Source: Balanoglossus misakiensis
Lineage: Eukaryota > Animalia > Hemichordata
Reading direction: 5' to 3'
DNA: 64,000 bases
NCBI GenBank assembly: GCA_040954595.2
Contig: CM082580.2
Coordinates: 982,783-1,046,782, forward strand
The notes beneath the pieces were generated by a model. That model saw only the letters and a program-made list of their open reading frames with translations, was not told where the DNA came from and made no database searches. Positions 6,728 through 30,287 of the stretch are shown here, piece by piece (positions within the stretch are counted from its first letter, which is position 1; every line of letters begins with the position of its first letter). Position numbers and translations under genes: made by a program.

Positions 6728-9700
6728 TAGGTATTTGACTCAGAGTAAACAAGATTGTGTAATTGATACATGTCAGAACGAGATAGAGATATCACGCGCT
6801 AAGTTCATGTTTAAGAAATATTAAGATGACGTGTTCCTTTTATGACATAATACTTGACTAACGTATTAATAAGAGGTGGTGAAATTTGATATCACATTAT
6901 TATCACCGGAGATCCGTGACGGGAGTCAACGAGCATGGATAGAGTCGTGTAATTCTTACGTGTGACCAGTAATAAACCACAACTATTTGTGTTACTCGGA
7001 AAACTTGTTGAAAGTCTCGTTATGCCTCTCGTTAAGTTTACGATATGCCGGGTACCTCTCTCTGACTCTATGAATATGTTGGGTGGAGAAGGAGAGGGAG
7101 AGAATTTACACTCTCACCCTTCGGACGTGGCTGATTCCCCAAAGAAGCCCCGATGAGGTAAACGTCCGAAGGATGGCGGGCGTAACAAAACTACAGTGTT
7201 CGCAACATGACCTCAGGTCCGCCGCAGGTTTTGCATGTTACAGCAGAAAACGTCTCCGTCAGACCACTAAAAGTAATACCTTTAGGACATAAATTATTTA
7301 TCTTGAAAGATATTGCTGTATGCAAATTTCATCTCCGGATTGCTATCGGCGAAACATACCGAGGCTGTCGTCGCTATAGTTGGGACCGACAGTCGAGACC
7401 CACATTGTATTGTAAGGAAAGTTTTAGACGCAACTTAATCAAAGCAGGTATAGTTAGCAGAGCAGATTAAGTTAGCAGAGGAGTGTCGGTATCGTCCACC
7501 GTAAACAGGTGTATTCCTATCGGATTTCAAGCGACAGTCAATTCCACTGGTCATCGATGTTTTTCTCCAAGGTGTTTGAAATACGTCTGTTCGATAGAGT
7601 CGTTGTTCCAAAATATGCACGGATGCACGGAATGCGACCACATCTGGTTGTTGACAACAAACTAAGGTAGATTATGACTATAATCCCAACTGTCTCCTGT
7701 GTGACACACTCCTGTTGTGATTATTGCTGGAATAGGCAATGTTTAAAACATGGGTGAAAATCAACAAAATGACAAATTTTCGACTGCAAAATCTCAAAAT
7801 TTCGTCGATTTTTGAAAAAAAAATCATTGGCTGTAGCTCATGAAAATCATCAACAAATGTCAAATTTTCAACTTTGCGAAATCTCAAAATATCGTCGATT
7901 TTTGAAAAAAAAACCATGGGTTCGTCGATTTTTGAAAAAAAACATGGGTGAAAATCATCAAAAAATGACAAATTTTCGACTTTGCAAAATGTCAAAATTT
8001 CGTAGATTTTGAAAAAAATTATGGGTTCGTCGATTTTTGAAAAAAATCATGGGTGAAAATCTTCAAAAAATGACAAATTTTCGACTGCAAAATCTCAAAA
8101 TTTCGTCGATTTTCGAAAAAAAATAATGGGTGAAAATCATCAAAAAAATGACAAATTTTTGATTTTGCAAAATCTCAAAATTTCGTCGATTTTGAAAAAA
8201 AATCACGGGTTCGTCGATTTTTTAAAAAAACATGAGTGAAAACCATCAAAAAATGACAAATTTAAGACTGCAAAATCTTAAAATTTCGTCGACTTTTGAA
8301 AAAAAGCATGGGTTCGTTGATTTTTTAAAAAAACATGGGTGAAAATCATCAAAAATTTACAAATTTTCGACTGCAAAATCTCAAAATTTCGTCGATTTTT
8401 GAAAAAAAAATCATGGGTGAAAATCCTCAAAAAAACGACAAATTTTTGATTTTGCAAAATTTCAAAATTTCGTCGATTTTGAAAAAAAATCATGGGTTCG
8501 TTGATTTTTTAAAAAAACATGGGTGAAAATCATCAAAAAATGAAAAATTTTCGACTTTGCAAAATCTCAAAATTTCGTCGATTTTGAAAAAAATTATGGG
8601 TTCGTCGATTTTTGAAAAAAAATCATGGGTGAAAATCATCAAAAAATGACAAATTTTCGATTTTGCAAAATCTCAAAAGTTCGTCGATTTTGAAAAAAAA
8701 TCATGGGTTCGTCGATTGTTTAAAAAAAACATGGGTGAAAATCAACAAAATGACAAATTTTCGACTGCAAAATCTCAAAATTTCGTCGATTTTTGAAAAA
8801 AAAATCATAGGCTATAGCTCATGAAAATCATCAACAAATGTCAAATTTTCAACTTTGCGAAATCTCAAAATATCGTCGATTTTTGAAAAAAAAAACGGGT
8901 GAAAATCATCAAAAAATGACAAATTTTCGACTTTGCAAAATCTCAAAATTTCGTCGATTTTGAAAAAAAATATGGGTTCGTCGATTTTTGAAAAAAATCA
9001 TGGGTGAAAATCATCAAAAAATGACAAATTTTCGACTGCAAATCTCAAAATTTCGTCGATTTTTGAAAAAAAATCATGGGTGAAAATCATCAAAAAAATG
9101 ACAAATTTTTGATTTTGCAAAATCTCAAAAATCACGGGTTCGTCGATTTTGAAAAAAATCACGGGTTCGTCGATTTTTTAAAAAAACATGGGTGAAAACC
9201 ATCAAAAAATGACAAATTTTCGACTGCAAAATCTCAAAATTTCGTCGATTTTTGAAAAAAAACATGCGTTCGTCGATTTCTGAAAAAAAAAATTTTTGAT
9301 TTTGCAAAATCTCAAAAATCACGGGTTCGTCGATTTTGAAAAAAATCACGGGTTCGTCGATTTTTTAAAAAAACATGGGTGAAAACCATCAAAAAATGAC
9401 AAATTTTCGACTGCAAAATCTCAAAATTTCGTCGATTTTTGAAAAAAAACATGCGTTCGTCGATTTCTGAAAAAAAAAACATGGGTGAAAATCATCAAAA
9501 AATGACAAATTTTTGATTTTGCAAAATCTCAAAATTTCGTCGATTTTGAAAAAAAATCACGGGTTCGTCGATTTTTTAAAAAAACATGGGTGAAAACCAT
9601 CAAAAAATGACAAATTTAAGACTGCAAAATCTCAAAATTTCGTCGACTTTTGAAAAAAAACATGGGTTCGTCGATTTTTGAAAAAAAAACATGGGTGAAA

Positions 9701-11022
9701 ATCATCAAAAAATGAAACATTTTAGACTGCAAAATCTCAAAATTTCGTCGATTTTGAAAAAAATTATGGGTTCGTCGATTTTTAAAAAAAAATCATGGGT
9801 GAAAATCATAAAAAAATGACAAATTTTCGAGTTTGCAAAATCTCAAAATTTCGTAGATTTTTGAAAAAAAATCATGGGTGAAAATCATCAAAAAATGAAA
9901 AATTTTCGACTTTGCATAATCTCAAAATTTCGTCGATTTTGAAAAAAATCATTGGTTCGTCGATTTTTGAAAAAAAAAACATCGGTGAAAATCACCAAAA
10001 AAAAATAGGTATTTGACTCAGAGTAAACAAGATTGTGTAATTGATACATGTCAGAACGAGATAGAGATATCACGCGCTAAGTTCATGTTTAAGAAATATT
10101 AAGATGACGTGTTCCTTTTATGACATAATACTTGACTAACGTATTAATAAGAGGTGGTGAAATTTGATATCACATTATTATCACCGGAGATCCGTGACGG
10201 GAGTCAACGAGCATGGATAGAGTCGTGTAATTCTTACGTGTGACCAGTAATAAACCACAACTATTTGTGTTACTCGGAAAACTTGTTGAAAGTCTCGTTA
10301 TGCCTCTCGTTAAGTTTACGATATGCCGGGTACCTCTCTCTGACTCTATGAATATGTTGGGTGGAGAAGGAGAGGGAGAGAATTTACACTCTCACCCTTC
10401 GGACGTGGCTGATTCCCCAAAGAAGCCCCGATGAGGTAAACGTCCGAAGGATGGCGGGCGTAACAAAACTACAGTGTTCGCAACATGACCTCAGGTCCGC
10501 CGCAGGTTTTGCATGTTACAGCAGAAAACGTCTCCGTCAGACCACTAAAAGTAATACCTTTAGGACATAAATTATTTATCTTGAAAGATATTGCTGTATG
10601 CAAATTTCATCTCCGGATTGCTATCGGCGAAACATACCGAGGCTGTCGTCGCTATAGTTGGGACCGACAGTCGAGACCCACATTGTATTGTAAGGAAAGT
10701 TTTAGACGCAACTTAATCAAAGCAGGTATAGTTAGCAGAGCAGATTAAGTTAGCAGAGGAGTGTCGGTATCGTCCACCGTAAACAGGTGTATTCCTATCG
10801 GATTTCAAGCGACAGTCAATTCCACTGGTCATCGATGTTTTTCTCCAAGGTGTTTGAAATACGTCTGTTCGATAGAGTCGTTGTTCCAAAATATGCACGG
10901 ATGCACGGAATGCGACCACATCTGGTTGTTGACAACAAACTAAGGTAGATTATGACTATAATCCCAACTGTCTCCTGTGTGACACACTCCTGTTGTGATT
11001 ATTGCTGGAATAGGCAATGTTT
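4466..11022 (+). repeat. Near-identical tandem duplication, period ~3277 bp (~2.26 kb satellite + ~1.0 kb non-satellite)
   Basis: Identical ORF translations offset by 3277-3278 (5001/8278, 6962/10240, 7483/10761). Junction near 7740-7748 with TGTTT microhomology. Confidence 0.9.
7745..10005. repeat. A-tract-rich satellite, segment 3 (duplicated copy)
   Basis: Copy of ~4470-6727. Confidence 0.95.
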
Positions 11023-12957
11023 TAATCTGCCTGCAAAGACTCGTGTGACAAAGATTGTCGGCCAGTCAACATCACCAACGATATTAACAATATAAAATAA
11101 ATAAAATTTCAACGATTCAACTTCTTTTCTAGCTTCCTATCTGGATAGTTTGTTTTTTTTACTCTAAAGATCGCCTTTCTTCCAGGCCACGTGGCAAGAG
11201 ACGTTATCAACTTCTACTATGATCGATGCGAGAGTACTATAGTATTCTCATATACACAGACAAAGGCCACCAAAATAAGAGAATCATTTGGTCAAATGGT
11301 AGAGGGCGCAAAAACAGATATTTCAAATGACAAAATTTTCCGATAAACGTGTTTAATCAAATCAAACTGTGCTCAATGGTATGCTTGCAAAAATTGAATA
11401 CAAATGAAACAAAACACAGCAACTGCCATGAACAAGAAGTTTATTCATGTCAAAATTCAATTTTTTTGAATCATTGATTTCAATTATCAGCTGAAAACTA
11501 AAATTAGATTGTCATCTTGAACAGTATAAAATCAGCGAGCCATTAGACATTAAGTACCCAGCATACTAAAATAAAACCATGTAAACATGCACAATTAGAT
11601 AATCAAATAATTTTTATTTATTCACCATGATGTTTTTAATGTATGTCAAGTCAAAGTACTTGAAGTTATGGACGATCAATTAAAATAGAAAACTGTAATT
11701 TTAATGGCTGGGTAATGTATCCAATTTCTGCCCAATATATGAAATTTCCGAGTTAGCAACTGAAGAATTCGTGGGGAAAATAGTTACGTGATGTGTAACA
11801 GAATTCACTTGGAAGTAAGGAGTTTTTGTAAAATCAACATGCATATTACAATTTATTTGTAAAAACTTGATTGGCAATGGAAAATTGGCGTTTAAATATA
11901 TAGTACTTCAAGATGAACAGATAAAATATAAGTTATTACAGATGTCATTTTACGACAACAAGGAATGGTAAATCGTTCTTTAATATCTTTAAAGATGCCA
12001 GGTCAAAGGTCACCTTTGCAAATTCAACCACTGGTACCATAGCCATTTCAAATGTAGCCAAAAGTGCGCCACCACTTTCTTCAAACATACTGAAACCATC
12101 TACAGGTTACCGTAGTCATATATCTCTTGGCATCCATGGCAGTTTAGCTAGTCATGAGCTGGCAAGGGGTGACCTGTAAGCTTTAAACTCTGGCTTCGGT
12201 AATGTCGACTCTGGCTCTGGCATATACTTGCAGGTCCATATGACCTTGGGGTGAACATGGTCATGAAGAAATAAATAGAATCTGTTTGGTGCATTGTCAA
12301 CTTCATTTTATAGTTTCAAAAAATTACAATATGATGAGTAATATTGTTGTTGTTTTCAAAGAGACTCACCACACACTTTAGTAAATCAATGACTTGAAAA
12401 AGTTTTGAGGACTATCATTTGTCAGAATCTCGGACCGCGAGGCACATACTACCTTAAATAGTTTCACTCGCAGCTTCTTGTGGGCAGTTTCTCCTTGCGT
12501 ACCTGTACAGACACACCAGGAGGCCGTTCCCGATGAACAACTCAACCCACATGAAAACATTCAAGCGTCTGGTCACACCCATTTCCGTCAAACAAGAACA
12601 TGAATGAAACTGCGGAGGAAGAGAACGGGAGAGTGCCCATTAACCCTGTAATGACCAATCATTTACTGGAACAAGGTTCAGGATGTACGATCACTGGAGT
12701 TGAAAATAAGGTCATGGATTTGAAAATTATTTTGAGTTATGAAATTGAAAATACATATTTTTCATTGTGGATTCTCCGACATAAATATTATCAAAAACAA
12801 TAAGGGTTGTCTTTTTAATTTATGACATATAACGCCATGAATCTAGCCCATTAATACAAAGGCAATACTAAAACACATTTCGGGTTAGCGTTATGACAAC
12901 TTGAAGAAAGTATGAATACAAACTTTCTAAAGTAATATTTTAAAGGTTGGCGTATTG
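10990..12957 (+). repeat. ~2-kb segmental duplication, copy 1 (copy 2 at 27786-29754)
   Basis: Collinear from CTGTTGTGATTATTGCTGGAATAGG to AAGGTTGGCGTATTG with scattered substitutions. Confidence 0.92.
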
Positions 12958-13070
12958 ATTACAGCTTGTTTGTTCTGCTATTAATGGAAATTCGGTTAGA
13001 GCCGTTTGAGGCAACTCTTATTCTGTCAAAGTTATGGCGTTAACTTATTCTGATAAAGTTATGTTAACGC

Positions 13071-13181
13071 TAATCTGATTAAAATCAGATGTAGGGAACG
13101 GCGACGTGTTTTTTATGCTGTCGCAGCATCAAAAAACTACGTCGCCATTCCCTAGGCCTACATCTGATTTCAAACAGATTG
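13071..13181. mobile_element. ~110-bp hairpin MITE (TAATCTG...CAGATTG), possibly AcademH-type
   Basis: Whole-length imperfect palindrome. Flanks TGTTAACGC / TGTTAACAT look like a degenerate 9-bp TSD. Related copy at 13441-13545. Confidence 0.55.
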
Positions 13182-13216
13182 TGTTAACATCAGGAACACT
13201 TTACATACATAAACTA

Positions 13217-13423
13217 CTGTAAAACACTTTATTTTAGCGAGTTGAAATTTTCACGATATCGAGAGAGGCTACTGTTTCGCGAGTATTAATTTTCGCGTTC
13301 TCTTATTTCATTCACTGCATCGTTATCTTCAAAAATAATTATGCGACCTCTTATTTTCATACCATTTTGGCTCTCACGTATCTCGCGAAAATGTATTGCT
13401 CGCGAAAATAACTTGTTTCACAG
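13217..13423. mobile_element. Tc1/mariner-type MITE
   Basis: TA|CTGTAAAACA...TGTTTCACAG|TA, ~25-bp imperfect TIR, internal TTTTCGCG / CGCGAAAA repeats. Confidence 0.7.
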
Positions 13424-13440
13424 TATATGCAAATATGCAG

Positions 13441-13545
13441 TAATCTGAATAAAATCAGATGTATGGTACGACGACGTCTTTTACTTATGTGGTACAGTAT
13501 TATTAGTATGCTGTCGTCATACCAACTGCGATTTTAGTCAGATTG
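13441..13545. mobile_element. Second hairpin MITE of the TAATCTG...CAGATTG family
   Basis: Starts TAATCTGAATAAAATCAGATGTA like 13071 and is palindromic. TSD unclear. Confidence 0.5.
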
Positions 13546-13856
13546 TATGTACGTCAACACTGATTGTTGTGGCTGCCTTAAATAGGTTTTCACTTTGCGC
13601 TACCTCTATACGTAACGCGTTCACTCAGTAGACCAAAATACACGGATGTCCAGCAGACAAGAGTTCCTGTTTATACCATGAGGCTAGAAGACTGTATTGT
13701 GTTATTATACAGTGGTGCAGTCTAGATTTTAGTGAGGGATTGAAGCGAATCCAATTGCTTGCTTGAAACTCGCCCATCGTGATTGTGCATTGATAAAATA
13801 CAATAATCATACCACAGAAACATAAATTCCAGCTGCGCCTATCAGCGAGATTGTCA

Positions 13857-14784
13857 TAGCCTGGAGACCAGGGCGTCGGGGAAAAGAAACGCCCGGGGAC
13901 AGTCTCTATTTACGAACAGAATTCTGTTCGTAGAACGACACGTGTGGTAAATCTTGCGTGTAAGCTAATTGGTCACTCAATGTTAACCACATGACATCGT
14001 CGCCTTCTAAATAAGGAAATAGAGGTGGAGTCATGTGTGAAATTCCCGCGATGGGATGTGGGAGTGGTTTTGAAAGTGTATGAATATTCATAACCAAGCT
14101 TTGTTAAAGGCACGTAAGGTGTAACTTTTGGGATAATTTTCATAATTTTTGTTTCAAACTGCACTACCATTAGTCCATGCAGATGGAGGTAGTGAACAAT
14201 ACACAAGCATTATAAACCCTAAGTATGAGTGCATATGCAAGTTTTAACCAGATAAATAATAAAGCTTTGCCGCAAGCGATTATGGCCGCCACCGTGGGAA
14301 AATGCAAGAAACAATGAAAATGTTGCATTTCCGGTTGTGAAACTTCATAAACAAAACATGATCTCATCCACTTGAGCTCATGGAAGTAAATGTACACCAC
14401 TGAGACATCAGATTTTCATTTTTCATTGCAATATTGCGCTTTTTTTAAAATTGCAGGAATTTTCGTTTTTCTTTAATTTTTGGCCATTTTGTCATAAATA
14501 AGTGTTGAGCTTGATATATTATCATGAAATAGCATTTAATAGACATAATTAAAAGCATATATGAGATTATTTAAAACTTTAATTTTTTATCCAGTTACAG
14601 CTTACGTGCCTTTAATTATATCATCCAACCACTGGCGCCCGTCAACATTTGATAGATCACTCGTTATCCATTTGTTACTAAGCGACCTCGATCGTTGCCA
14701 AGACTACTATCTTTCAGCTCAGCAGGACTTGCTCGACTGTCCCCGAGCGTTGTATTTTAGATCGACGCCCTGGTCTCCCGGCTA
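13857..14784. mobile_element. Non-autonomous AcademH-type element
   Basis: TIR TAGCCTGGAGACCAGGGCGTCG / CGACGCCCTGGTCTCCCGGCTA (~50 bp imperfect). Perfect 9-bp TSD AGATTGTCA at 13848-13856 and 14785-14793. TAG...CTA termini. Confidence 0.85.
14108..14611. mobile_element. Kolobok-type MITE (504 bp) nested in the AcademH-type element
   Basis: TTAA|AGGCACGTAAGGTGTAACT ... AGTTACAGCTTACGTGCCT|TTAA. TTAA TSD with purine-purine start. Confidence 0.8.
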
Positions 14785-15278
14785 AGATTGTCAATATATA
14801 CGCCGCATGTTGCCAGCCAGGGCCCCGACTGACATTCCCTCTGAATATACACACCCCTCTATTGAAAATGGAACATTCCTGCAAGCAAAGCATGTTGTAC
14901 TTGCTTACATCAGCTGTAGTGACTTGTGTAGACCCCCAGCGCGCGGCCTCTACTGTCTGTATATGGTCTGTCACAGTCCCCGGGAGTAACTGTCATGACA
15001 GAAATCGGTTTGTCAACGGCAAAACGGAGATAAGGTGTTTTTTCCGAATATAGAATATTCAATTCTGTTTGATTCGGTCATGCCCAAAGTGTGCGTAGCT
15101 GTCGTCCTCTGACAACGCTCGCTCATATTTCATGCGGAGAACTTAAGTAGGTTCAAGCCAAGTTTTAATAGTTGGGCTAAGGTCTTCCCTGATAAGTGTT
15201 GAAATGTTTGGGGTGTTACTGTCCGGGCTGTAACGACTTGGGTCGTGGAAAATGGGGGCTGAAACGACTGGGGCCGAA

Positions 15279-15334
15279 AGGGTCAGAGTGCCGGAACGAC
15301 CTGTTTAAACATGTCGTTCCAGCACTATGACCCT
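15279..15334. repeat. 56-bp imperfect palindrome after short GGGCYGAAACGAC-like repeats (MITE-end remnant)
   Basis: AGGGTCAGAGTGCCGGAACGACCTGTTT/AAACATGTCGTTCCAGCACTATGACCCT. Confidence 0.55.
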
Positions 15335-16323
15335 AAAGTGTTACCTAAGATAGTGTCCAGCGTCTAGCCGTTATTGAAATTATAGACCCTGCAGCGAGAC
15401 TGAGCATGATTTGTTGTTGTCATGAAACTCATCTCGTACTCCAGTCACTTTCATACAAAACGGCTATGAGTGTCCAATGGTCTTTGTTGAGACTGTTTGA
15501 CATTGAATGGCATTGACCTCGCGGGAGGATATCCTTCATGAATACAATGCAGGATATAATTTACATTGGCAAAGGGCTTTGAGGTGCACCAAATTAGTAA
15601 TTTAGACACACCTTAATTATTACATGCCACCCCAAACTTTTTTAAAGCAAGAAACAAAATTGCAGTGCTTTTCCAATGACGCTTTTTAAAATGTAGAATC
15701 AGATTGTTTTCTTGTCGCTCAGGTGTCCAAAATAAATATAGCTGTGATCAATTCCTACTTAAAGCAAACAAAAGTAAATTGAGTTGAATGGGCACGTCCG
15801 GCCCATATTTGACCCATTTCACATTTTTTCTTTCTTAGGCTGCATTCACAAACACCTCTGGAGGGGGGGGGGAATTCATCTTTTACCGCTAATTTTCACA
15901 TGCCCCCCCCCCCTTTCACAACCCGAAATATTTTGAAATCCCCCTTCCGAACTGCCAAAATTTTGAAATCCCCCCATTTTCTTTCACAGAGCAAAACTCA
16001 TAACTCTGCTCAAGCGCTCCCATGAAAAGAATTTGAAACTGATGTTTCCCCTCATCAGTGGGTATTAAAACTGAACATTGTTTTTATTTTTTAAGTATTT
16101 TGTATGATTATAATTAAAAAATATACAACTTAGCTAAAATGCTCAGATGAGTTAATCAGATTTTCAAAGTCCACCTAAAAGATCATTTAATCTTTCCAGG
16201 GTGCGGTTTATGTTGGAGATAGTATCAGTTAGGCTATTTCTCAGAAAATCAATGAACAATCTGCGGACACCCCGAATAATATGTTACCACAACGCTAGCC
16301 AGGAAGCACATGGGACATTTCAC

Positions 16324-16590
16324 AATGAGGCAGTGAACACTGGGGGGACCAGACTGACACGTTAACCAATCAGGGAGCTGTATGGTGAATAAATACATAT
16401 TAATAAGACCTAACCTACAAGGTCCTGCATAATGAGGCAGTGAACACTGGAGGACCAGACCTACACATTAACCAATCAGGGAGCTGTAAAGTGAATAATG
16501 CATTGTAATAAGACCTAACCTACAAGGTCTGGTGAATAATACATAGTAATAAGACCTAACACATAAGGTCCCTCCAATCAGCGAGCCGCA
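16324..16590 (+). repeat. ~107-bp tandem repeat (two units plus partial)
   Basis: AATGAGGCAGTGAACACTGG...AACCAATCAGGGAGCTGTA...TAATAAGACCTAACCTACAAGGTC repeated. Confidence 0.75.
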
Positions 16591-16675
16591 AGTGGACCTT
16601 AGAGAAGTGGATAAACCAATCAGAACATGTAATACGTGTGCATAGGACCTGTAATGTAGGTCATTTTGAAACAGG

Positions 16676-18689
16676 ACTAGTTCACCATGACCAACCACAT
16701 GACCCAGGAAATCGATCTGCTCATAACCCACATAACACTTAGTTGGTCTCGCTGTTAACTTTGCCTTTCGTAGTCTGCTCATCAAATCTGTAATTGTCTT
16801 GATATGTTCTTCCCATGATGCAGTGTGGATCAGTATGTGATCGATATAGTTGTCTACGTTCTTCATATCTCTTAACAATCTTCTCATAATTCTGCTAAAA
16901 GTCGCAGCACTATTTACAAGTCCGAAAGGCATTTTGATAAATTGGTATAGCCCATCATGCGTGATAAATGCCGTCAATTGTTTAGAATTATCAGTCAACG
17001 GGACTTGCCAATATTCTTTGCTGAGATCTACTTTAGTGAAATAGTGATCCTTGGATAACTTAGCAAAAAGCAAAAAGCTCACTCAGGTCTGGTGTAGGCT
17101 CTGCATCAAACACTGTTATGCGATTGAGCTTTCTCATGTCAACACAACAACGATTGGACCCATCAGATTTCTTCACCATTACCAGTGGAACAGCATATGG
17201 ACTCTCTGAAGGTTCAGCTACTCCCATCTTAATCATCGTTTTGACTTCATCTTTCACTGCTTCACGGAGTGCATGAGGGATGGGGTATGGCCTACTGCAT
17301 ACTGGTGTTGGATCCATCAACTTGATGTCATGGAAACCCAGGTTGGTGTTACCACGAATATCAGTTAACATATCTTTGTAATTGATCAGCAACCTCCTCA
17401 CCACTTGCTTCTGTATGTCTGACAAGTTGTCACATACATTCACATCTGCAGCAAATTCTTTCTGCTTGAATGCAGGAACCCGCAGTAAGTCATCGTTTAC
17501 TTTAACCCCTGTGTTCTCTTGTACTTCTGAAGATTCATAACTCTGCTCATCTATCACAGATACACACACAATCTCAAGAAGTCCAGCTGATACTTCATCT
17601 AGCTGATCAGTTCTTCGATAGTACCTCTTCAACAGGTTGGCATGGAATGTTTTCACCCTATGACCAAAGTCAATCTTGTAATCCATATTGCTCGCTTTCT
17701 CCACCACTGGAAAAGGACCCTTCCAGTGCATAAGTAGTTTATTATGGTCAGTAGGTAGTAGCAATAACACCTCGTCACCTTTGTTGAACTTCCTCCATTT
17801 GGCCTTTCTATTGTAGTAGGACTTGTATTTGCCTTGTGATATCTTCAGTTCTTGTCTTGCTAAATCGCATGCCTTCTTTAATTTCTTTTGAAGATCAAGG
17901 ATGTATTGATAAGTCGTTTTGGTTTCTGGTTCACTGATCTCTCCAGTCCATAGTTCTTTCAAGATAGCCATTGGACCACGCACACTCCTCCCATAAAGTA
18001 ACTCAAACGGAGAGAATCCTGTGCTCGATTGAGGCGTTTCTCTGTAGGCAAATAGTAAAGCATTCAGATAACGATCCCAATATGTTGGACGTTCCTCACA
18101 CATCTTCCTGAGCATGAGTTTCAATGTACCATTGAACCGTTCCACTAGACCATTGAATGCTGGGTGGTATGGGGTGGTAGTCATCTGCTTTATAGACAAA
18201 AGCCGGCTGACCTCACGCATCACATCTGATGTAAATTGAGTTCCTTGATCTGTCAGAATTTCACGTGGACACCCCACTCTTGAGTAGATGTCCAGGAGCG
18301 CCTCTGCAACAGTCTTGGTATCAATGTTAGTCAATGCAACAGCCTCCGGATAGCGTGTTGCATAATCAACAACAGTAAGTATGTACCTATTCTTGCGTTC
18401 AGTGCATGGATGAATAGGGCCAACCAGGTCTACTGCAATACGTAGGAAAGGGATATCTATTAGTGGCATACTTCCAAGTGGTACCTTGGTCACCCGTCCC
18501 TTTGGTTGTGTCCGTTGACATGAATCACAGGACTGACAGTAACGGGAAACATCTGATGTTAGCCCAGGCCAAACGAAGTTGCTGAGGATCTTGTCTGTGG
18601 TCTTGTGAGTTCCGTGGTGACCACCCAGCACTGATTCATGGGCTAGTCTCATCACCTGGTTACGATACACTCTGGGAACCACCACCTGT
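16676..18689 (-). pseudogene. pol: Gmr1-like pol, integrase + reverse transcriptase part
   Basis: Zinc-binding AHES..GHHG..CQSCDSC, core DLVGP / TDQG / VERFNGTLK, WKGPF, then RT DLSKEYWQ / MPFGL. YIDD is mutated to YIDH. A 7-bp tandem duplication at ~17063-17078 causes a frameshift. Ends after FLGHVVG. Confidence 0.92.
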
Positions 18690-19538
18690 CACTACAGCTT
18701 GAACGACGCCACCTATGGGCAGTATTTCCGTGGCAGCCTATGAAGCTCATGAATATTTAATTAGACACAGTAATGGCGTTCGCGATCGAACACAGCTGTC
18801 GATGCACAGCATAATTCGGTGAGTAATATTGCTTTATTCCAAGTTTTGTTTAGTAAAATTAGCAAGATGTCAGAGACAATATGAAATAAAGTTGCGATTC
18901 TGCTGTGTTATTTATGTGTATCAGCCAAATAACTTGAACATTTTGATCACCCGCTGACAGTCCCTGGCCGTTGCTATAGCAGAAGCCGTCCTAAGCAACC
19001 ATAAACAAACACTAAAAATTACAACGATTCAGCTTCACAGAATTGTTTTTTTCAATTTGAAAACCATACGAATTTAGTCTTTTATACGTAAACATAGGAT
19101 TCCATGTTTAAAATGCTGCTACAAGCAATATGACGAAATCATACCAAGCGAAAATATACGACCCTGTGTGTTCCTTGGCAGCAGCACGGGTTACATTGAT
19201 TGTAATGGCGGCGCTTCGAATTTTCGGCGACATGGTGATATTGTTCATAGAATTGACAGAAAATAAGACCGTAACTGAAAAATCAGAAACCAATAGTTTG
19301 TGCTAAAATATATTCTTGATATAATTCGCTGGAAATTCGAGGGTGAAAACGAAATAAGAAAAAAATGAATGGGCGAGATTGTTATGGTAAGGTTACCCAC
19401 ATTCTTTCTATGTCACCTTTGACCTCAATTTCTGGAGGAAGTATAATGAGCAGGTGTTTTGTTTTTGCTTCCCTCGGATAGATAATTATTGTAAAGATAT
19501 TTCTCTTGTTCACCCTTTTCAGGTATAGATTTAGAGCC

Positions 19539-22500
19539 ATGTGGGGCAAACTATTCAACAGGAGTAGCGCACTTCTTAAAAGTTTGTCTATTGTTATGCC
19601 GAATAGAAAAGGGAAAAGTTACTTCAACATAGGCCAGTGGGCAAAGGACCAAAAGATAGCGAGACAGGTAGCTGAAGAGAAGTGTTTACAACAACTATAT
19701 CAGGAGAAATTGAAGACTAGATCTTTGTCTGGGAGCGTGGCCAACAACCTATTGGTAGTTAGAACAAAGAGAGGACAGACTAAACACAGGTTTAACTTAG
19801 GAGAGTGGTGTAGACAGAGAAAGAGAAAGAGAGATGAGGAAGAAAGCATAATTCAGGATAAGTTGAATAAGTTGAGTGCAGCTAGGAGACTAGTAAAAAG
19901 ATCCTCAACCCAGCTAGCTAGACTAGAGAAGAAGAACAGTAAGATTTGTGAGATCTTAGCTACAAAGAATAATAAGAGAAAGGTAAGCTAGATCAGATAA
20001 ATAGACTTAGTCATAATTTTAAAAATCTCAGATTTGTATAAATCCTCTTCAAATTTTAGCCCAAATTCGCTTTTTGAACTTCATGTCACATGATCCTGTG
20101 TAAACAATGATAACAAAATGGGTTCAGCTTTGATGCAAAACATCTAGGTTTTCCAACAAACTATGTATATTTTTTAGGATTTTTATTGCAGAAGTTGTCA
20201 GAAAAATACAGGCTACACGTGTGTATTTCTTATCAAGGACATTTAAATTAATGATTAACTTGTAAGAAGATTTTATTTTATATATAATGATTATATTCTA
20301 ATTAGTATATATTTATCACACACTTAATCTTTCAGATTCCTGTTGATGTTGTTAATGTGAAACGCTCTAAATGGGTCCACAAGAACACTGAAGTATGTGC
20401 AGATAATAGTGAATCTTTGAAGCTGTCGCGACGTCAACAGTATGAACGTAGGTGTGAAACCTTATCAGCAGCCATAAATATTCATGTAGCAACTACAGAT
20501 GTAAGCCCAGCCAAAGGTATAAATAAACCGAATGTACTACATCCACCAAAAGCAGCACTTGATGGTTTGTGGTATACTCTTGTTAATTCTGCCACTCCTG
20601 ACCAAATGAAAACATTCTTCAGAACCTCTCCCCAAATCAGTAAAAAAGTAATGCCATCAGTATTTGATAAATACATCAGTAAATTTGAGAAAAGTGAGAA
20701 CAATTTGGTGAGGAGTGTCAGAACTATGTATGAGGGCGGAGTACTATCCAAACGAAAATATAACTGTCTGAGGCAGAGTGAACTTCAGATGTTCTCCAAC
20801 TTGAAACATCCTAGGAAAGCAGTAGAAATTCATTCTGGCTGTAGAATACCAAGACTGCTCCCATACACAAAAGTTGTACAGTATGTAAGTAACCTTGACA
20901 TTGGAAATCTTGAGCCAATTATATCATCTGAAGGCAAACAAGTCGGCTTAAAAAGAAACCCTGAGGAGTTGCTTATTAAGATTGCCAGTTTATATTTAAA
21001 TATGGGGGAAACACAGCCTGATATTCTTAACTGGTTCGGTAAACAGGAGGGCTCATTTCAAATCAGTATAGGTGCTGACGGGGCTCCGTTTGGCAAACAT
21101 GGACAGGCCACTGCATGGCTAGTTAGTTTCTTGAATGTGACCCACCGTGTTGCTAGCCCAGACCACAATTTTCTCCTATTAGGGGCAAACATAAAAGAGG
21201 ATGACCCCATAATGATTGAATTTGCAATTGCATTGTCAAAAGACCTTGAGTGTATTGAGAAACGTAAATATAAAGTTGGCAGTCTTGATGTAACTTTTCA
21301 GGTGTCACTTTTACCCTTTGATCAGAAGGGATTGGCCAGTGTGTCTGGAGAACTAAGCAATGCAGCAAAGTATTTCAGCTCATTTGCTAACGTTCCAAAA
21401 ATGATATTGATTGTATTGGAGCAGAAATTGGCCCAGGTCAGAAGTGGGATGAATGGAAATATCAGAAAAGAATTAAAGATGCAGAAGCTGTTGAAAAGTT
21501 GAAGTCAACTAAGAAAATTAAAACTGGAAAGCCCAAAACAGTGCGACCCAAAATCACACAATTTATAGCCAGTCTGAGGTCAAGACAGGAATTTGTACCA
21601 CCGTTGGGTAGATTTATTGATTGTGCCAAGGCTGAGCCATTGCATTTAAAGAACAATGCATGGCAATACTACTTCCAACGATTACTGATTGACGCAGTTG
21701 CCCACACTTCAGAAAAGGGTCGTGAAAATGGAGTTAAAATTGAGAATCTACCTAACGAGTCATATCTGTACAAATTCCTGTCTGCCCTAAAATATCAAGT
21801 AAAAGCTGGAAAGTTGTATAATAAGATTGTAAAATACTTCAATGAAAATAGTGTCAAGTCAAATGCCAACATTAATGTGGTTTATCGCTTCACTGGTGAG
21901 GAGTCTCGCAAACTTGCTTGGCATTTCATAGGATTGGTATTAGCATTGAGAAGCGATACAGACAGACCAAAGCGTCGGGCTCAATTAGCTCTCTACACAT
22001 ATACTGGTATCTTGCTTAGAGATATCACTTTGTTATTCTCACGATTCAACATAAATGAGGGAGATTTGCTTGTACTTAGGCATAAGTGTCGGTGGTACTT
22101 TAATCTACATTCCCTGTTTCTGAATGTCAATAATACTGTGTGGCACATTGGTTATGTAGTCCCAAAACACACCACTAGTATCTATAAGCAATTCAGTCTG
22201 GGATTAGGCCTAAACACAATGGAAGGCAGAGAGGCAAAGCATCTACGCCTGCTAGAATTCAGTGAAAATTCTACACCTCAAAATAGGTGGGCCCTCATAT
22301 TTCGACACGAATATGTGATGCTTTTTTGGCTGAGGAACAAAAGTCCAAAAGCTGACAACTATAGAAATGCAAATGTAGGTCAATTTGAGCTTAAAGAAAA
22401 AGAAAAATACATTCCCAGTCGATATTATGAGAATGCAGGCTACTGTATGTGTGGCAATTTAAAAAAATGAAACAATGACTGCCTGTGAAATATGTGTTGA

Positions 22501-22576
22501 CCCAATTATGGATGACATAAAAAAAGCAGCTGTCACTGGTAAAATATCAAATAAACTCAAGAAACTTATGCTGTGA
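19539..22576 (+). pseudogene. RAG1/Transib-like DDE transposase, two coding exons (19539-19982, 20336-22576), two 1-bp frameshifts
   Basis: Phase-0 GT-AG intron 19983-20335 joins the ORFs in frame. Motifs LKLSRRQQYERR, LSKRKY, IGADG (D, 21077), IKEDD, PFDQK (D, 21320), EPLH, RFTGEESRKL, GLNTMEGREAKH (E, 22231). Frameshifts near 21394 and in the A-run near 22465. C-terminal CxC...CxxC; stop at 22574-22576. Confidence 0.8.
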
Positions 22577-23428
22577 ACAATGATTGAATTTGAAACAGTG
22601 GATTGTGTCACTGTGTGCTACTTTAGAATTAAAGGATAACTATAGTATTAATTACATTACAGAATTATAAAGACTCATCTGTAGTTGAGAGCTGCATTTA
22701 ATAAAAATGGAGATCACAAATCACATGAATTCACACTTTTTGAACTGGAGATGATATGTTTCTTATGGGATTTTGTATATGTGTGCATGTATGGGGACAG
22801 GGAAATTGAAACTTATCTTACCACTATTAAGTATTGTGAATAAACCCTTAATCGTATAGTGATTGCAGTGCTTTGCAAAATTAAAATGTATGACATACAT
22901 AAGCTTGATAGAAAAGTTTTACATTTTTCTTGAGGAGTTGTTTATTCTGCACCTGCACGAAATTTTAATGAATTTGTGAAAAAATAAAGAATTAAGTCTC
23001 ATCAAATTCTTGATATTTATAAATTTTGTCATGGAATTAATTGTAAATATTAATTAAATTTAGACCAGAAATCCTGGTTAACTGTTAGATGAGCAGTTTT
23101 GATTGACTTATCAATGTTGATTGTAGGTAACATACATTTTTTTCTGAAACTAATGAAAAATCTATGTTACAATAATGATGGAAAAAAAGAATTTTACAGT
23201 TTAGGAAATTTTGTAAACATTATCTGTTCATTTGTATTGAATGTAGATAAATAAAGACAAGTGATGAATTTTTGAGTCTTCTAATTTTCCTTTTTTTATT
23301 TGAATATATGTCAATTGTGAGAGGACTGTCTTGACAGACTGATACATCTACACTGAACAACATGTGCCACAGATCAGGAAAAAAATGTTCCTCAGATGGG
23401 TTGAATCAGTGTGAAAAATCAATAGGGT

Positions 23429-24079
23429 TCAGTTCTCTGGATGTAATGGAATTCCATGTTTGTTCCAGGCACCAAAGCTGAATCTAACAGCAACAGTCTC
23501 CCTGTTGATAAAATATTTCACAACACAGGGCTTCTCAGGTGTGAATATAACAGCTACCCTCTTTCCACGGACTTTCTTCTCTAGGATATTCTCTGTATGC
23601 TGACCGATAGCGCCCTCGTAGCAATAACCTTTCCGTATCACATACAATAGCTTCAAGGAACTTGTGAAGGTCAAGGTTATGATAGCCCTGGAGGTCTTCT
23701 CGTCGATACCAAAACCGGTCCGAGTAGCAAACTGATGAAAAACATCAAATACTTCCCTCGGCATTTGTCGTGTAAAGCTGCTTTGCCATGGTGACCTTAA
23801 CGACGGGGATGTTGACAGCCGAGCGTAGAAGGTCTTCTGCCAGTAGGTCATATCACGCTGAAACATGGGAAATACGGCGACGTCACGCCAACGAATCTTG
23901 TCCTTTGACAGCTTGTCGTTTCGAAATATGGCCCTTGTTGTCACATCCTCAAGTTCATCAAAGAGTGGGTGTATATACAGATTGTCCGACACGCATTTTT
24001 TACGTTTAAGCACAGATTTTGCCTCTCGCAATTTGCGTTTTATAACTTTCTCGGCATCGATCAACACGGGCGCCGCCAT
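23429..24079 (-). CDS. Intact 216-aa protein of unknown function carried by the transposon, convergent with the transposase
   Basis: Single ORF with strong start context CAAGATGGCGGCG, 84 bp inside the right end. Protein-like composition. AT-rich spacer (22577-23428) separates the two convergent genes. Confidence 0.7.
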   Translation of the reverse strand: MAAPVLIDAEKVIKRKLREAKSVLKRKKCVSDNLYIHPLFDELEDVTTRAIFRNDKLSKDKIRWRDVAVFPMFQRDMTYWQKTFYARLSTSPSLRSPWQSSFTRQMPREVFDVFHQFATRTGFGIDEKTSRAIITLTFTSSLKLLYVIRKGYCYEGAIGQHTENILEKKVRGKRVAVIFTPEKPCVVKYFINRETVAVRFSFGAWNKHGIPLHPEN

Positions 24080-24163
24080 CTTGGCAATGCGTTGCTATGG
24101 TGAACATGGGAGCTCGCGCTTCGCGGAATACTGCCCAACATAGCTCTAGTATTTCCCGCAGTG

Positions 24164-25977
24164 TGTAACAGCTTTTCACCAAATTGGACCATTGGCGAAT
24201 TGAACTCTCTGTACAGGATCCCATCTTTCATGATGAACTTCAACCTACCTCCATTCCTAGTCACTTTCTCGTCACCCAAAATTGCCTTCTCACGTAGTTT
24301 GTCAAGAGTGGAGTCTTCTTCTTGAGCTTGTTGAAGCTTCCCTGGCATCACCACTTCACCAACAGCTTTAGGTACTTTAAGCTCTCTGATTGGTTTTTGG
24401 TTGGCTATCTTCTGGGCTCTGGTCTCCACAGCATTTGCTAAACCTGGTACCTGTCCAACAGTTGTACACAGTCTACATGTCGGCAATGGTTCCTGCCATG
24501 TAGTATCAGGATTCGAAGGGTCAGATACACCATCAATGTTGCCCAGTATTAAATCATACACATGGTTCATCATGCACAGTGCAGTAACATCACCAACAAA
24601 GTAAGGGGTATCAACTTTTATAGAGGCTACAGGTACTCTTCTAATAGTCCCATCTATCAGAACACACGTCCTGTACTCACCAGTCAGCTGATTACTTGAC
24701 ACCAGACTTCTTCGAACTACCACGCTACTACACCCACTATCACGCAAAACGCTAACCAGCTTACCATCGAGCAATCCCTTCATTACCGGCATCTTCTTCA
24801 CTCCATGGGCACTACAAGCAGCACTCATCACTGGGAGCTTATGACCACATGGTAACACGAACTCCTTATTCAGTGTTGCATCTGTTTTATCTATTTCCAT
24901 TGCTACCACCATACATGCATAACCAGTGTCTAGTCCCCTGGGCTGTTGACGGTTGCCCCAATGTGTACATTCTTGTTTAGGTGGATAGTTTCTATCTTCT
25001 TCAGTTAACAATACCGCCGTCTTATGCATCTTTGGCTTACTTCTACAATCTTTGGCCATATGACCACCTTTACCACATACGAAGCACGTACCTTTAAAAA
25101 CATGGGAACCATTGGTTTTGTTATTAAACTTATTTACTTGATTTGGATATACAGCAGGCTTGGTATTTGCTGTCGGCTGGCTCCTTGGATTATTCTTGGC
25201 ATTACTTGGCAGTTTCCACCACCCTCGGGCATCTAAGTATTTTGAGGCAGTAGATACCATCTCTTGGACATTCTCTGGCCGTCGCTCTCTAATGAACATT
25301 GCCATGTCTCTGGAACATACTCCAATAAACTGCTCTCGAAGTAACAGATCTGTAAGCCCATTGTACGTCTTTGGAGTACCAGCCAGTTCTACCCATCTGC
25401 CCAAATAGTCACCAATACGGTCCATAAACTTTTGAGCACTTTCATCATAATGTGGCATACACGAACGGAACTTGTCATGAAAACTCTCCTCACTTAACTG
25501 GTAAGCCCTCAATAACTCTGGTTTCAATTCATCATAATTATTTGCAGACGCTGCAGGCATTTGGTTGTATGTGGATACATCCTTACCTTGTAACAATATG
25601 CACTGAGATTCACCCCCAGTCATCTTTTTCCCACTTCTGAGCAGTGGCGTAGCGCTGAAAACGTTGAAGGTACGCATCCATATCATCAACATCCTCACGA
25701 AAACCCTGTAGTCTCGGAGCACGCGCTTTGGCCAAATTATTTTCAGTAACCTGCTGTTCTGTATTTTCCCCTTTCAATTTTAATTCTTGTAAGTGAATTT
25801 GCATTTTCAGTATCTCTCTCTCATGTTCCTCGCGCCGCCTATTATCTTCTCTCTGCTCCTCTCTCTCAGTAGCCCTAAGATCCCTCTGTCTAATTTGTTC
25901 CTCTCTAACATAATCTTTTAAAGCAGTCCCTTCCAACCCAAATTTTCTCCCTATCTTAGATATTCTTTCTGCATATA
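24164..25977 (-). pseudogene. gag: Gmr1-like gag-protease
   Basis: GRKFGLEGTALKDYVRE coiled coil, MDAYLQRFQRYA, SCAN-like EQFI...FIRERRP, CFVCGKGGHMAKDC, LRDSGCS. Frameshifts near 25595-25615; start codon apparently mutated. Confidence 0.88.
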
Positions 25978-26255
25978 TGCTTTGCTGTATCGCGATTTAC
26001 AACCCCCAGTTTGACAACCCCTAGCAGTACAGGGCATTCAGCACAAGTCAACACAGCCAAACGCACGACGCAAACCAACACGGCCCATATTATATAGCAG
26101 GAAACCACAAGCGCACATACAGTAACAGTACCAGCCTACAGACCCAGCACCGTCTTCACAATTTGCAGAATCTCTACCTAGCAAAACCATGGTCTCCACT
26201 ATATGGCAACAATTTATGATAGTATACAAACAAATGCACAACAAAACGATAAAAC

Positions 26256-26272
26256 TCCCGGACGAGCCCCCA
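26256..26272 (-). promoter_or_regulatory. Primer-binding site, tRNA-Pro type
   Basis: TGGGGGCTCGTCCGGGA on the minus strand, 2 nt after the LTR-terminal CA. Confidence 0.9.
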
Positions 26273-26274
26273 AA

Positions 26275-27571
26275 TGTCAGAGGTGGAGGGCACCCCTCTG
26301 ATTCCAGGATAAATATTGAGCAGCTCTCAGTGCCAAGGAGTAAACATCCGTGGATAAGGTATGGGGAGAAACTACACAAACCAGTGCGGATACAATAATA
26401 CAGTTGATTTAATTTAAATCAATTAAATAATATAAAGATAATACTAGGAATATAATTTTTGTGCACAATATGCACAATATCAAATGTCTCTGTCCTAACC
26501 AATTTAGCAGGTACAGGTATGCTGATACAATTGGTCATACAATACAATGGGTTACTTAATATATTACATAAATGAATATATTCACAATATCACTATAGTT
26601 TATTGTCTATTGCATATTGTCTAAACAATGGTAAGTGTCACTTAGCTGTATATAACATTCATAGTAAACAATCATGATTCAACCACAATATGGGATGGAG
26701 TCCTGTATAGATGAACGATGTAGCGACGATCCACATTACACATACAATCTGTGATACACCATGTTTTCTACCACTTGTAGTCCTCCAGTAGTCAAGTAAA
26801 CACACTGAAGACTGACTTGTTAGATGCAAGTCTTGGGTTAAATGGCTGAATGAAAAATCAACAAACATTGACTGAAATGTCCACCTTAGCAACTGTTCAC
26901 AAATGAATACTGACGTTTCTCAATAATAATTATCAGAAATTTGGACTAGTTAAAGCGTCATGATTACATGTGATATCATGGAAAATTATGCTTTAACTAT
27001 GACCGTCCTATTACTTACAAATTGTCGAATTTGACATAAATATCCATAAAATATAAATTTAAGTTATAGTAAATAAATAAACAAATACATTACTTACACG
27101 AGAATTCTTCACCACACTTCATGCTCAGCAATACCGGGTCTATAGGATGGTTCCACAGAACTCTGCTTGGAGCAATTTCCAGCCACACCACATACGACCA
27201 TGCCAGCCACGCCAATCGCCCGACCACACCGGTTTGCACTGAATAAGCACAATTCTGCTTTCTAGAAGTACTGAATTTACTTCCACTCGAATTGCAGAAA
27301 CAGTGGTCCTGAGAGCACTAATGCGCGCTACAGCATTACATGGACACAGCAAGGTATGGTGCAATATTTCCCCTAGTATTTCTACTCACTGAGCAGGGAG
27401 ACCCGACTTGTTGCTCCCTTCAAGACCTAAATTGAAGTGTGCTCTCTTACTACACGAAACTTAGCTAACGAAGCCCTATTCATTAACATGACAATACACG
27501 GTGTCACTACACCTGAAATTATGCGGGCACCTGGGTTTCCACTGACTCCAGTACTACCTAATTATATGACA
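26275..27571 (-). repeat. 5' LTR of the Gmr1-like element (~1.3 kb)
   Basis: TGTCA...TGACA ends, adjacent to the PBS. The outer boundary is inferred because there is no second LTR to compare. Confidence 0.65.
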
Positions 27572-27785
27572 AGTTGGGACCGACAGTCGAGACCCATACA
27601 GCATTACAATCAACAAATAGTAAAAAAAATAAAAAAGTAAACAAAAAACAGGAAAACATTTTAAAAATACAAATAAAATTATGAAACTACTAAAAAAACA
27701 AAACAAAAACAAAAACAACACAAAAACACAAAACAACAAGCGAGGTCAATAAAGATTAACGCTTACAAAGATAGAAAAAGTAAGA

Positions 27786-29754
27786 CTGTTGTGATTATTG
27801 CTGGAATAGGCAATGTTTTAATCTACCTGCAAATACTGGTGTGACAAAGATTGTCGGCCAGTCAACATCACCAACGATATTAACAATATAAAAATAAATA
27901 AAATTTCAACGATTCAACTTCTTTTCTAGCTTCCTATCTGGATAGTTTGTTTTATTTTACTCTAAAGATCACCTTTCTTCTAGGCCACGTGGCAAGAGAC
28001 GTTTTCAACTTCTACTATCATCGATGCGAGAGTACTATAGTATTCTCATATACACAGACAAAGGCCACCAAAATAAGAGAATCATTTGGTCAAATGGTAG
28101 AGGGCGCAAAAACAGATATTTCAAATGACAAAATTTTCCGATAAACGTGTTTAATCAAATCAAACTGTGCTCAATGGTATTCTTGCAAAAATTGAATACA
28201 CATGAAACAAAATACAGCAACTGCCATGAACAACAAGTTTATTCATGACAAAATTCAATTTTTTTAATCAGTGATTTCCATTATCAGCTGAAAACTAAAA
28301 TTAGATTGTCATCTTGAACAGTATAAAATCAGCGAGCAATTAGACATTAAGTACCCAGCATACTAAAATAAAACCATGTAAACATGCACAATTAGATAAT
28401 CAAAGATTTTTTATTTATTCACCATGATGTTTTTAATTTATGTCAAATCAAAGTACTTGAAGTTATGGAAGATCAATTAAAATAGAAAACTGTAATTTTA
28501 ATGGCTCGGTAATGTATCCAATTTCTGCCCAATATATGAAATTTCCGAGTCAGCAACTGAAGAATTCGTGGGGAAAATATTTACGTGATGTGTAACAGAA
28601 TTCACTTGGAAGTAAGGAGTTTTTGTAAAATCAACATGCATATTACAATTTATTTGTAAAAACTTGATTGGCAATGGAAAATTGGCGTTTAAATATATAG
28701 TACTTCAAGATGAACAGATAAAATATAAGTTATTACAGATGTCATTTTACGACAACAAGGAATGTTCAATCGTTCTTTAATATCTTTAATGATACCAGGT
28801 CAAAGGTCACCTTTGCAAATTCAACCACTGGTACCATAGCCATTTCAAATGTAGCCAAAAGTGCGCCACCACTTTCTTCAAACATACTGAAACCATCTAC
28901 AGGTTACTGTAGTCCTATATCTCTTGGCATCCATGGCAGTTTAGCTAGACATGAGCTGGCAAGGGGTGACCTGCAAGCTTTGAACTCTGGCTTCGGTAAT
29001 GTCGACTCTGGCTCTGGCATATACTTGCAGGTCCATATGACCTTGGGGTGAACATGGTCATGAAGAAATAAATAGAATCTGTTTGGTACATTGTCAACTT
29101 CATTTTAAACTTTCAAAAAAATAACAATATGGTGAGTAATGTTTTTGTTGTTTTCAAAGAGACTCACCATACACTTTAGTAAATCAAAGACTTGAAAAAG
29201 TTTTGAGGACTATCATTTGTCTGAATCTCGGACCGCGAGGCACATACTACCTTAAATAGTTTCACTCGCAGCTTCTTGTGGGCAGTTTCTCCTTGCGTAC
29301 CTGTACAGACACACCAGGAGACCGATCCCGATGAACAACGACACCCACATGAAAACATTCAAGCGTCTGGTCACACCCATTTCCGTCAAACAAGAACATG
29401 AATGAAACTGCGGAGGAAGAGAACGGGAGAGTGCCCATTAACCCTGTAATGGCCAATCATTTACTGGCACAAGGTTCAGGATGTACGATCACTGGAGTTG
29501 AAAATAAGGTCATGGATTTGAAAATCATTTTGAGTTATGAAATTGAAATACATATTTTTCATTGTGGATTCTCCGACATAAATATTATCAAAATCAATAA
29601 GGGTTGGCTTTTTAATTTATGACATATAACGCCATGAATCTAGCCCATTAATACAAAGGCAATACTTAAACACATTTCGGGGTAGCGTTATGACAACTTG
29701 AAGAAAGTATGAATACAAACTTTCTAAAGTAATATTTTAAAGGTTGGCGTATTG
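27786..29754 (+). repeat. ~2-kb segmental duplication, copy 2
   Basis: Matches 10990-12957. Confidence 0.92.
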
Positions 29755-30287
29755 CTTAGCATAATCATTTTTCCGTTTGCTGTGACATTTGTCTCCCTGT
29801 GAGAGTTTAAGTAAATGTAGAGTCACGCAAATTAGGCAACATCAATATCCCATACGTAATTCAGTGTGTTTTGTTCGCATTTTTGGTTTTCATTTTGAAA
29901 ATGAACAAAGGACTTTCCTATCATTGACCAACACTCGTATGAATACATCCAAATTACCCAACTTTAATTTTCCTTAAAGAATTGGTCAGCTCTGCGAATA
30001 TATTTCACCTGACCACTTCCTTTGCTAAGGAAGAGTGTTGTTTATGTAATAATATTTTTATAATATTTATAACTTATGTAGCACATTAAATCTCAACGTG
30101 CTTTAAGTTGTCCCATGGTCATTTGAGCTAGGATGTTGGACCTAAATATTCCATTCAACTCCCTGGGGAGCAAACAACATCTCACCATCATTAGAAATGC
30201 CAAATTACAGTGCTTTTGGCCACGTATTAACCTGGGGATTTACAGTTAACTTTAAATACACACGCATATGCATTTAATCCCCATGTG

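Follow-up and report, generated by a model that had tools for sequence, protein, structure and literature searches.

A two-gene transposon family of marine invertebrates with 3-bp target-site duplications and a predicted RAG1/Transib fold, likely a CMCT lineage of its own

A 64,000-bp stretch of the Balanoglossus misakiensis genome (Hemichordata; assembly GCA_040954595.2, contig CM082580.2, forward-strand positions 982,783 to 1,046,782; hereafter, the window) contains a real DNA transposon, nested in a Gypsy retrotransposon at window positions 18690–24163. It is a member of a large family that is widespread in marine invertebrates. We consider it very probable that this copy is a young, frameshifted member of a cut-and-paste family with two convergent genes, 3-bp target-site duplications (TSDs) and a transposase of predicted RAG1/Transib fold, likely forming its own lineage in the CMCT clade. 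By the features tested, the family is a distinct CMCT lineage outside RAGL, Transib and Chapaev3. Its ends, the 3-bp TSD with an empty site, the conserved D-E-D-E residues, the absence of C(2)C and the coupling of the second open reading frame (ORF2) to the transposase are all directly supported. New here, to judge by the aligned proteins, is that the C(2)C zinc motif is missing from the family though it is held to be universal in CMCT transposases. An earlier reading of the same stretch (the preliminary description) had proposed a RAG1/Transib-like element with a ProtoRAG-like layout; it is supported in part, and was silent on the C(2)C loss, on the bipartite terminal inverted repeat (TIR) and on membership in a large family.

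The element and its host are organized as follows (window coordinates):

18687–18689: left TSD, TGT, from the sequence and the phase of the pol frame
18690–18729, plus strand: left end, a bipartite, imperfect TIR consisting of CACTACAG, an 18-bp spacer and TGGGCAGTATT
19596–19982, plus strand: predicted transposase exon 1, 129 aa, start codon inferred from homologs
19983–20335, plus strand: predicted phase-0 intron, GTAAGC..TTTCAG
20336–22576, plus strand: transposase exon 2 with the predicted RAG1/Transib-fold core, stop at 22576
23429–24079, minus strand: convergent ORF2, 216 aa, isoelectric point (pI) 10.0, open frame 24079–23429
24124–24163, minus strand: right end, consisting of CACTGCGG, an 18-bp spacer and TGGGCAGTATT
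24164–24166: right TSD, TGT
10990–29758, minus strand: host Gypsy retrotransposon, with long terminal repeats (LTRs) at 10990–12961 and 27786–29758

The 5.5-kb element starts with CACT (18690) and ends with AGTG (24163), and the triplet TGT stands directly outside both ends. In the Gypsy pol frames to the left and to the right, the middle base of either TGT falls in one and the same codon phase, so that 3 bp fit as the length of the duplication and 4 or 5 bp do not. The exact boundaries that the preliminary description had derived from the restored pol frame are borne out by this codon phase, as are the CACT...AGTG ends it had named. Each TIR consists of CACT.C.G, an 18-bp spacer that is unlike between the ends, and an 11-mer identical at positions 27–37 of both. 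Compared in register, the two ends agree at 22 of 40 bases, including the 11-base run; runs of at least 11 bases in register were seen in 2 of 100,000 random pairs. A local inverted pair (24119–24132/24148–24161) is present at the right end. The transposon breaks Gypsy just before its integrase domain: Pfam places the integrase zinc domain directly after the left junction and the gag and protease domains before the right one. Contigs of the public run X1 cross both junctions; X1 and a second run, X2, come from the same sample, which may be the source of the window, and do not count as independent support. The LTRs of the host Gypsy are 97% alike, and insertion of the transposon is therefore likely young.

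TSDs were also tabulated in relatives. Our set of 81 loci comprises the best 80 of 212 metagenome-contig stretches that encode relatives, plus one locus (L081) from a bacterial metagenome-assembled genome (MAG). Relatives begin with CACGC[CT][GT]G. Eleven loci with both outer ends were treated as complete; L049 was left out of the TSD count, having a damaged outer left end and a TTA/TTA match that belongs to an internal end-like motif. Five of the complete relatives have a 3-bp TSD (L003 GAT, L006 ATT, L075 TAG, L076 ATT, L081 ATA), and the probability of five such matches by chance is about 1e-6. A TSD of 4 bp or more was found in 0/11. The L081 locus is decisive: it is embedded in a tandem repeat of 294 bp, of which 29 further units among those listed show the site with a single triplet, i.e. 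empty, which settles the 3-bp TSD. The 3-bp stagger proposed earlier is thus upheld by five relatives and by the empty-site repeats, and the tabulation revealed no case of 4–5 bp that would speak for another length. As a contrast to the 5-bp TSD of Transib, the earlier argument stands only in part: the 3 bp of the family are real, but 3-bp Transibs have been reported and this length is normal for CMCT elements.

Several loci carry additional end-related structures. In L048–L052, a second end-like motif, CACGCCGGG, stands some 845 bp inward of the left end; it resembles the right TIR more than the outer end does. Inverted ORF2 fragments lie upstream of the transposase in L002, L010–L012, L047–L052, L057, L063, L068, L073–L075 and L081, yielding internal inverted repeats of 77–339 bp, none of which is present in the window copy. 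These fragments could reflect recurrent copying from the right end to the left end and could make hairpin RNA. In L003, a Harbinger-like pair (a Myb/SANT-type ORF and a DDE nuclease fragment, identified by eye) lies beside the element at 7530–9835.

A protein search with the C-terminal half of the transposase revealed 76 homologs of at least 630 aa in corals, an anemone, an acorn worm, a nemertean and an annelid, and a profile search gave 722 representatives at E ≤ 1e-30. Among named homologs, identity to the window protein is 75% in Ptychodera flava and 34–40% in Acropora, Actinia, Porites, Desmophyllum, Lineus and Owenia. Lancelets (Branchiostoma) also hold members, which are divergent and have SAP domains; the proteins P0174, P0188, P0197 and P0214, two of them named from Branchiostoma, constitute a divergent branch with C-terminal C2H2 and SAP domains and without C(2)C. 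Every annotation met among the homologs reads ‘uncharacterized’ or ‘hypothetical’. No relative was found in viral contigs, no holder was listed among RNA data, and the search of prokaryotic genomes returned a single match, L081 (G001:C35). The bacterial MAG contig in question, 86 kb long, is the 294-bp tandem array carrying an animal-type transposon. Since the array is free of genes and its insert AT-rich, we read it as animal DNA in the MAG, probably host contamination, and transfer into a prokaryote was set aside.

The transposase contains the D-E-D-E motifs IGADG, IKEDD, PFDQK and EGREAKH in exon 2. D181, E221 and E566 are each conserved in 60/60 homologs and D262 in 59/60, which fits the DEDE tetrad named for RAG-type transposases (PMC10629977, excerpt). 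All RAG1-like motifs quoted in the preliminary description were recovered in the translations, its four acidic ones being invariant or nearly so. In register with mouse RAG1 (the sequence printed in the supplement of PMC7204232, excerpt), the family has K at +2, G at +9 and Y/F at +17 after the second Asp, and EG.E at the last Glu. The positions of two RAG1 zinc cysteines (+19/+22) are mostly S and A/G, and CxxC, i.e. C(2)C, after the second Asp occurs in none of the 67 and 60 members of our two alignments. H(3-4)H is seen in 24/67 and 13/60 members; one His is retained in 65/67, and the spacing is absent from the window copy. Both motifs are described as common to all CMCT lineages (PMC12730594, excerpt). 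Of the CMCT features, the family thus has the RAG1-like DDE core (as a predicted fold) and CA..TG ends with a TSD of 2–5 bp, and lacks C(2)C in the interval from the second D to the final E.

Other motifs complete this picture. A C-terminal CxC..CxxC is present in 62/67 and 52/60 members, and an LH motif is invariant. The CCGHC tail of RAG1L (CX2CX3GHX4C) was found in 0/220 proteins, many of them partial, and the GRP motif in none of 59 long homologs. Arg 451 of the RFTG motif is invariant (60/60); judging by an ungapped match of RFTG to RMNGN, it may occupy the position of RAG1 R848, a residue that almost abolishes transposition in RAG1 and whose site is hydrophobic in invertebrate RAG1L (PMC10629977, excerpt). 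The first 150 aa of the 59 long homologs, some of whose gene models may lack exon 1, contain a median of 2 Cys (maximum 7). Exon 1 of the window copy contains 3 Cys, two [RY]F.[IL]G.W repeats (a motif present in 5/59 long homologs) and a basic helical stretch; a Cys-rich Chapa/RING region is absent.

The fold was modeled for homolog P0001 (AlphaFold2, AF2, on 67 sequences; mean predicted local distance difference test score, pLDDT, 91.6). A structural comparison with RAG1 and Transib, suggested in the preliminary description, was run on this model and revealed similarity: Foldseek matched RAG1 at E 1.5e-11 and HzTransib at 2.3e-7, and 49/49 among the matches listed at E ≤ 0.001 were RAG1, BbRAG1L or HzTransib. 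VIA gave Z 22.6 for RAG1 (rmsd 3.7, 462 aligned), 20.1 for HzTransib and 19.9 for BbRAG1L, followed by the P element at 11.1; identity in the structural alignments to these three was 9–13%. The RAG1 fold proposed for the transposase is thus borne out as a prediction. Apart from RAG1, ProtoRAG and Transib, no CMCT enzyme was among the PDB matches, and the fold match therefore shows clade, not lineage. When predicted models were compared, TM scores were 0.63 for RAG1, 0.62 for cnidarian EnSpm, 0.61 for arthropod EnSpm, 0.59 for Plavaka and 0.58 for a DUF1280 cluster. Profiles of the 67 and 60 members reached no RAG1 or Transib PDB chain at E ≤ 10, so the special closeness to RAG1/ProtoRAG initially claimed was overstated. 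Sequence searches of Pfam and PDB brought no meaningful match, whether run with the two ORFs or with their alignments: transposase members had no RAG1 Pfam match, and neither the window protein nor family members matched Transposase_21 or Plavaka. By language-model features, the nearest cluster after the family itself (0.97) has DUF1280 in 16% of its members, and RAG1-domain clusters follow at 0.92–0.95.

ORF2 is a linked component of the family. It is convergent to the transposase in 35/81 loci, a share that becomes 31/33 where the downstream flank is 1.5 kb or longer and 22/23 where it reaches 2 kb, and its start codon is 77–106 bp from the right end in 11/11 measured elements. Homologs are 205–260 aa long and only 14–31% identical to the window protein, with open frames and the C-terminal motif ([YF]G.WN..G.P.H in the window copy) retained. 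Trees of ORF2 and transposase (18 representative pairs) are congruent, with four clades in common, and their distances correlate (Spearman 0.61; 0/2000 permutations as high), which shows co-inheritance of the two genes, not binding. The ORF2 model (pLDDT 81) has long N-terminal helices and an alpha/beta C-terminal domain and is not a propeller; no kelch Pfam match was found in 26 members. ORF2 is not RAG2. The non-RAG2 partner foreseen in the preliminary description is thus borne out by model, linkage and trees, as is its spliced plus-strand transposase with a convergent minus-strand ORF, both found in the translations. Its ProtoRAG-like layout holds for two convergent genes inside TIRs, an arrangement analogous, not homologous, to that of ProtoRAG.

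A single-sequence search with ORF2 found no match; a profile search found 19 proteins, 18 of which carry PF26709. The protein family has thus at least not escaped the Pfam curators; we found no mention of it in the literature. Foldseek found no match to the fold at E ≤ 0.001 in PDB or BFVD, and the best VIA hits (Z 7.0 and 5.4) cover the N-terminal helices only; a known fold is possible for the C-terminal domain. Since ORF2 is basic (pI ≥ 8.9) in 27/35 homologs and has no conserved acidic catalytic set, one Glu apart, we lean towards a non-catalytic, nucleic-acid-binding accessory of transposition, in the role of RAG2L or CACTA TnpA. It is doubtful that ORF2 is instead cargo or a counter-silencing or regulatory gene that touches neither transposase nor ends: this is hinted at by a weak Atlas lead (0.93, low recognition) to Argonaute N/L1/PAZ clusters and by weak Foldseek rows for SPARTA/APAZ chains (E 0.03–0.1), but these leads stay below the thresholds set by the tools themselves and were missing from the top VIA rows, so that the Argonaute/APAZ link was not confirmed. 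A core function is suited at least equally by the fixed site beside the right end and by the divergence of ORF2 in step with the transposase.

In the window copy, the spliced transposase would be about 873 aa long, and exon 2 is 74–75% identical to P0001. Two frameshifts interrupt exon 2, near 21392 and in an A7 run at 22461–22467. For the first, an in-frame form exists on one contig of run X2; for the second, no run contig has a differing form. The second removes half of the C-terminal cysteine module, and the copy is therefore probably inactive, at least through this lesion. Relatives with long open frames exist, L003 and L081 among them. The host Gypsy contains a SCAN domain and has the order gag-protease-integrase-reverse transcriptase; integrase ahead of reverse transcriptase is an order that we take to recall the Gmr1 clade. 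Elsewhere in the window, there are head-to-tail duplications at 35471–44652 (4591 bp, 99.98%) and 4470–11025 (about 3280 bp, 99.8%), which are either very recent or assembly artefacts, and tandem arrays at about 4050–10000 and 57100–64000.

We found no description of the family in the literature, including the available parts of PMC9435367, PMC1131882, PMC4411706, PMC7204232, PMC3985635 and bioRxiv 10.1101/2021.09.26.461848. The preliminary view that the element is not assignable to a named family agrees with our searches, which returned none; a curated entry in Repbase, Dfam or Repbase Reports (Lanisha) under an EnSpm, Transib or Chapaev name is possible. The family probably works as a RAG1/Transib-type cut-and-paste element and may be a novelty at superfamily level. 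Tentatively, we would go further and see in it an undescribed superfamily-level RAG1-fold branch of at least five animal phyla, without a zinc site considered essential for the fold, moving despite an invariant Arg at the R848 position, a residue that blocks transposition in RAG1, with a 3-bp stagger and a new-fold partner independently recruited into the ProtoRAG position.

Two other assignments have to be weighed. That the family is a highly derived Chapaev/Chapaev3 branch, which shed its Chapa domain together with the zinc cysteines and acquired a second gene, seems improbable to us. CAC..GTG ends with 3–4-bp TSDs are Chapaev hallmarks (PMC4079192, excerpt), the LH motif is invariant, and the feature-nearest cluster includes DUF1280, the Chapaev transposase family (PMC3985635, excerpt). 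Yet Chapaev3 TSDs are TWA (PMC4079192, excerpt), which is 0/6 among the TSDs known in our family (TGT, GAT, ATT, TAG, ATT, ATA); no DUF1280 match was found in 67 members (E ≤ 0.1) or 24 (E ≤ 0.01), C(2)C is absent, and the N-termini are not Cys-rich. Still more improbable is the strongest form of the preliminary reading, a divergent Transib/RAGL relative, sister to or within the RAG lineage, with RAG2L swapped for another partner: RAG1 is the best PDB and Atlas structural match outside the family, its clusters are close by features, EG.E is in common with RAG1/RAG1L, the TIR is bipartite and 3-bp TSDs occur in Transibs, but identity is 9–13% against an average of 26% across RAG1L and Transib (PMC9435367), EnSpm and Plavaka models score almost equally, and the GRP motif, the CCGHC tail and the zinc ligands are lacking.

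Several observations weigh against a separate RAG1-fold lineage with a 3-bp TSD and a coupled ORF2. Six of the 11 complete loci (L002, L010, L012, L048, L052, L073) have no 3-bp match. Several of these six have a flank in common with a different contig (L073/L075, L048/L052, L011/L012), which suggests collapsed short-read assemblies, an explanation shown for neither L002 nor L010. ORF2 is missing from 7/42 loci with at least 1 kb downstream, one of which (L037) has 6 kb, and 8/35 ORF2 homologs are not basic. The model depicts a 75%-identical homolog, not the broken window copy, and its predicted fold is about equally near RAG1, EnSpm and Plavaka. The proposed residue equivalences to RAG1 stem from motif register, not from structural superposition. 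Finally, the likely separate lineage is argued from profile searches without hits, the missing motif and the similarity of models, and not from a tree with named RAG1L, Transib, Chapaev and EnSpm elements.

RAG and Transib enzymes act as dimers and excise DNA by nicking and hairpin formation. By analogy, a dimeric enzyme of the family may bind the CAC end and the subterminal motif, nick there and leave hairpins on the flanks, with insertion at a 3-bp stagger. The zinc site may have been replaced by hydrophobic residues, the C-terminal CxC..CxxC module could clamp DNA, held by zinc, where RAG1L has its CCGHC tail, and ORF2 would bind the ends or the transposase as a non-catalytic accessory.

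The evolution of RAG is currently read from three enzymes, RAG, ProtoRAG and Transib. Three questions would become testable with a living outgroup that shares the predicted fold and has another partner and intact copies in corals: whether the fold needs the ZnB zinc, what sets a 5-bp or 3-bp stagger (the loop with RAG1 R848 differs in the family) and whether recruiting a second convergent gene is a solution reached more than once or a one-off. If our reading is true, hundreds of ‘uncharacterized’ coral proteins can be annotated as transposases, and a motif used in defining the CMCT clade is broken.

Among named systems, Chapaev3 (PMC4079192, excerpt) has CAC..GTG ends, a 3-bp TSD and the LH motif in common with the family, which differs in lacking the TWA target rule, C(2)C and a Chapa-like N-terminus and in having a second gene. 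EnSpm and Plavaka differ by their Pfam domains (Transposase_21, Plavaka) and C(2)C, all without a match in the family, and have a similar predicted fold (TM 0.59–0.62). EnSpm/CACTA, Plavaka, ESTA and, by description only, Lanisha (CMCT; PMC12730594, excerpt) share CA..TG ends and the 2–5-bp TSD range; CACTA stands at the left end of the window copy, and CACTA elements, too, have a second gene. Transib resembles the family in predicted fold (Z 20.1 to HzTransib), in DDE residues and, in two elements, Hayabusa and Transib-6, in the 3-bp TSD (bioRxiv 10.64898/2026.08.26.747230, excerpt); the ends of these 3-bp Transibs start with G, whereas those of the family start with CAC. Transibs are single-gene elements (PMC1131882, excerpt) and keep C(2)C (PMC12730594, excerpt), and there is no sequence-profile link to them, with 9–13% identity against about 26% or more within the Transib/RAG1 core. 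ProtoRAG/RAGL (PMC7204232; PMC10629977, excerpt; PMC9435367) shares with the family the predicted core fold, the DEDE tetrad, CAC ends, a bipartite TIR, two convergent genes inside TIRs and marine invertebrate hosts. The family lacks the ZnC2 cysteines, the GRP motif and the CCGHC tail of RAGL, to which it is 9–13% identical. Its TSD is 3 bp (in the window, with 0/11 relatives having 5 bp) whereas that of RAGL is 5 bp, the position that may correspond to R848 is Arg, not Met, and its partner is a helical and alpha/beta protein of ~210 aa in place of the kelch-PHD RAG2L.

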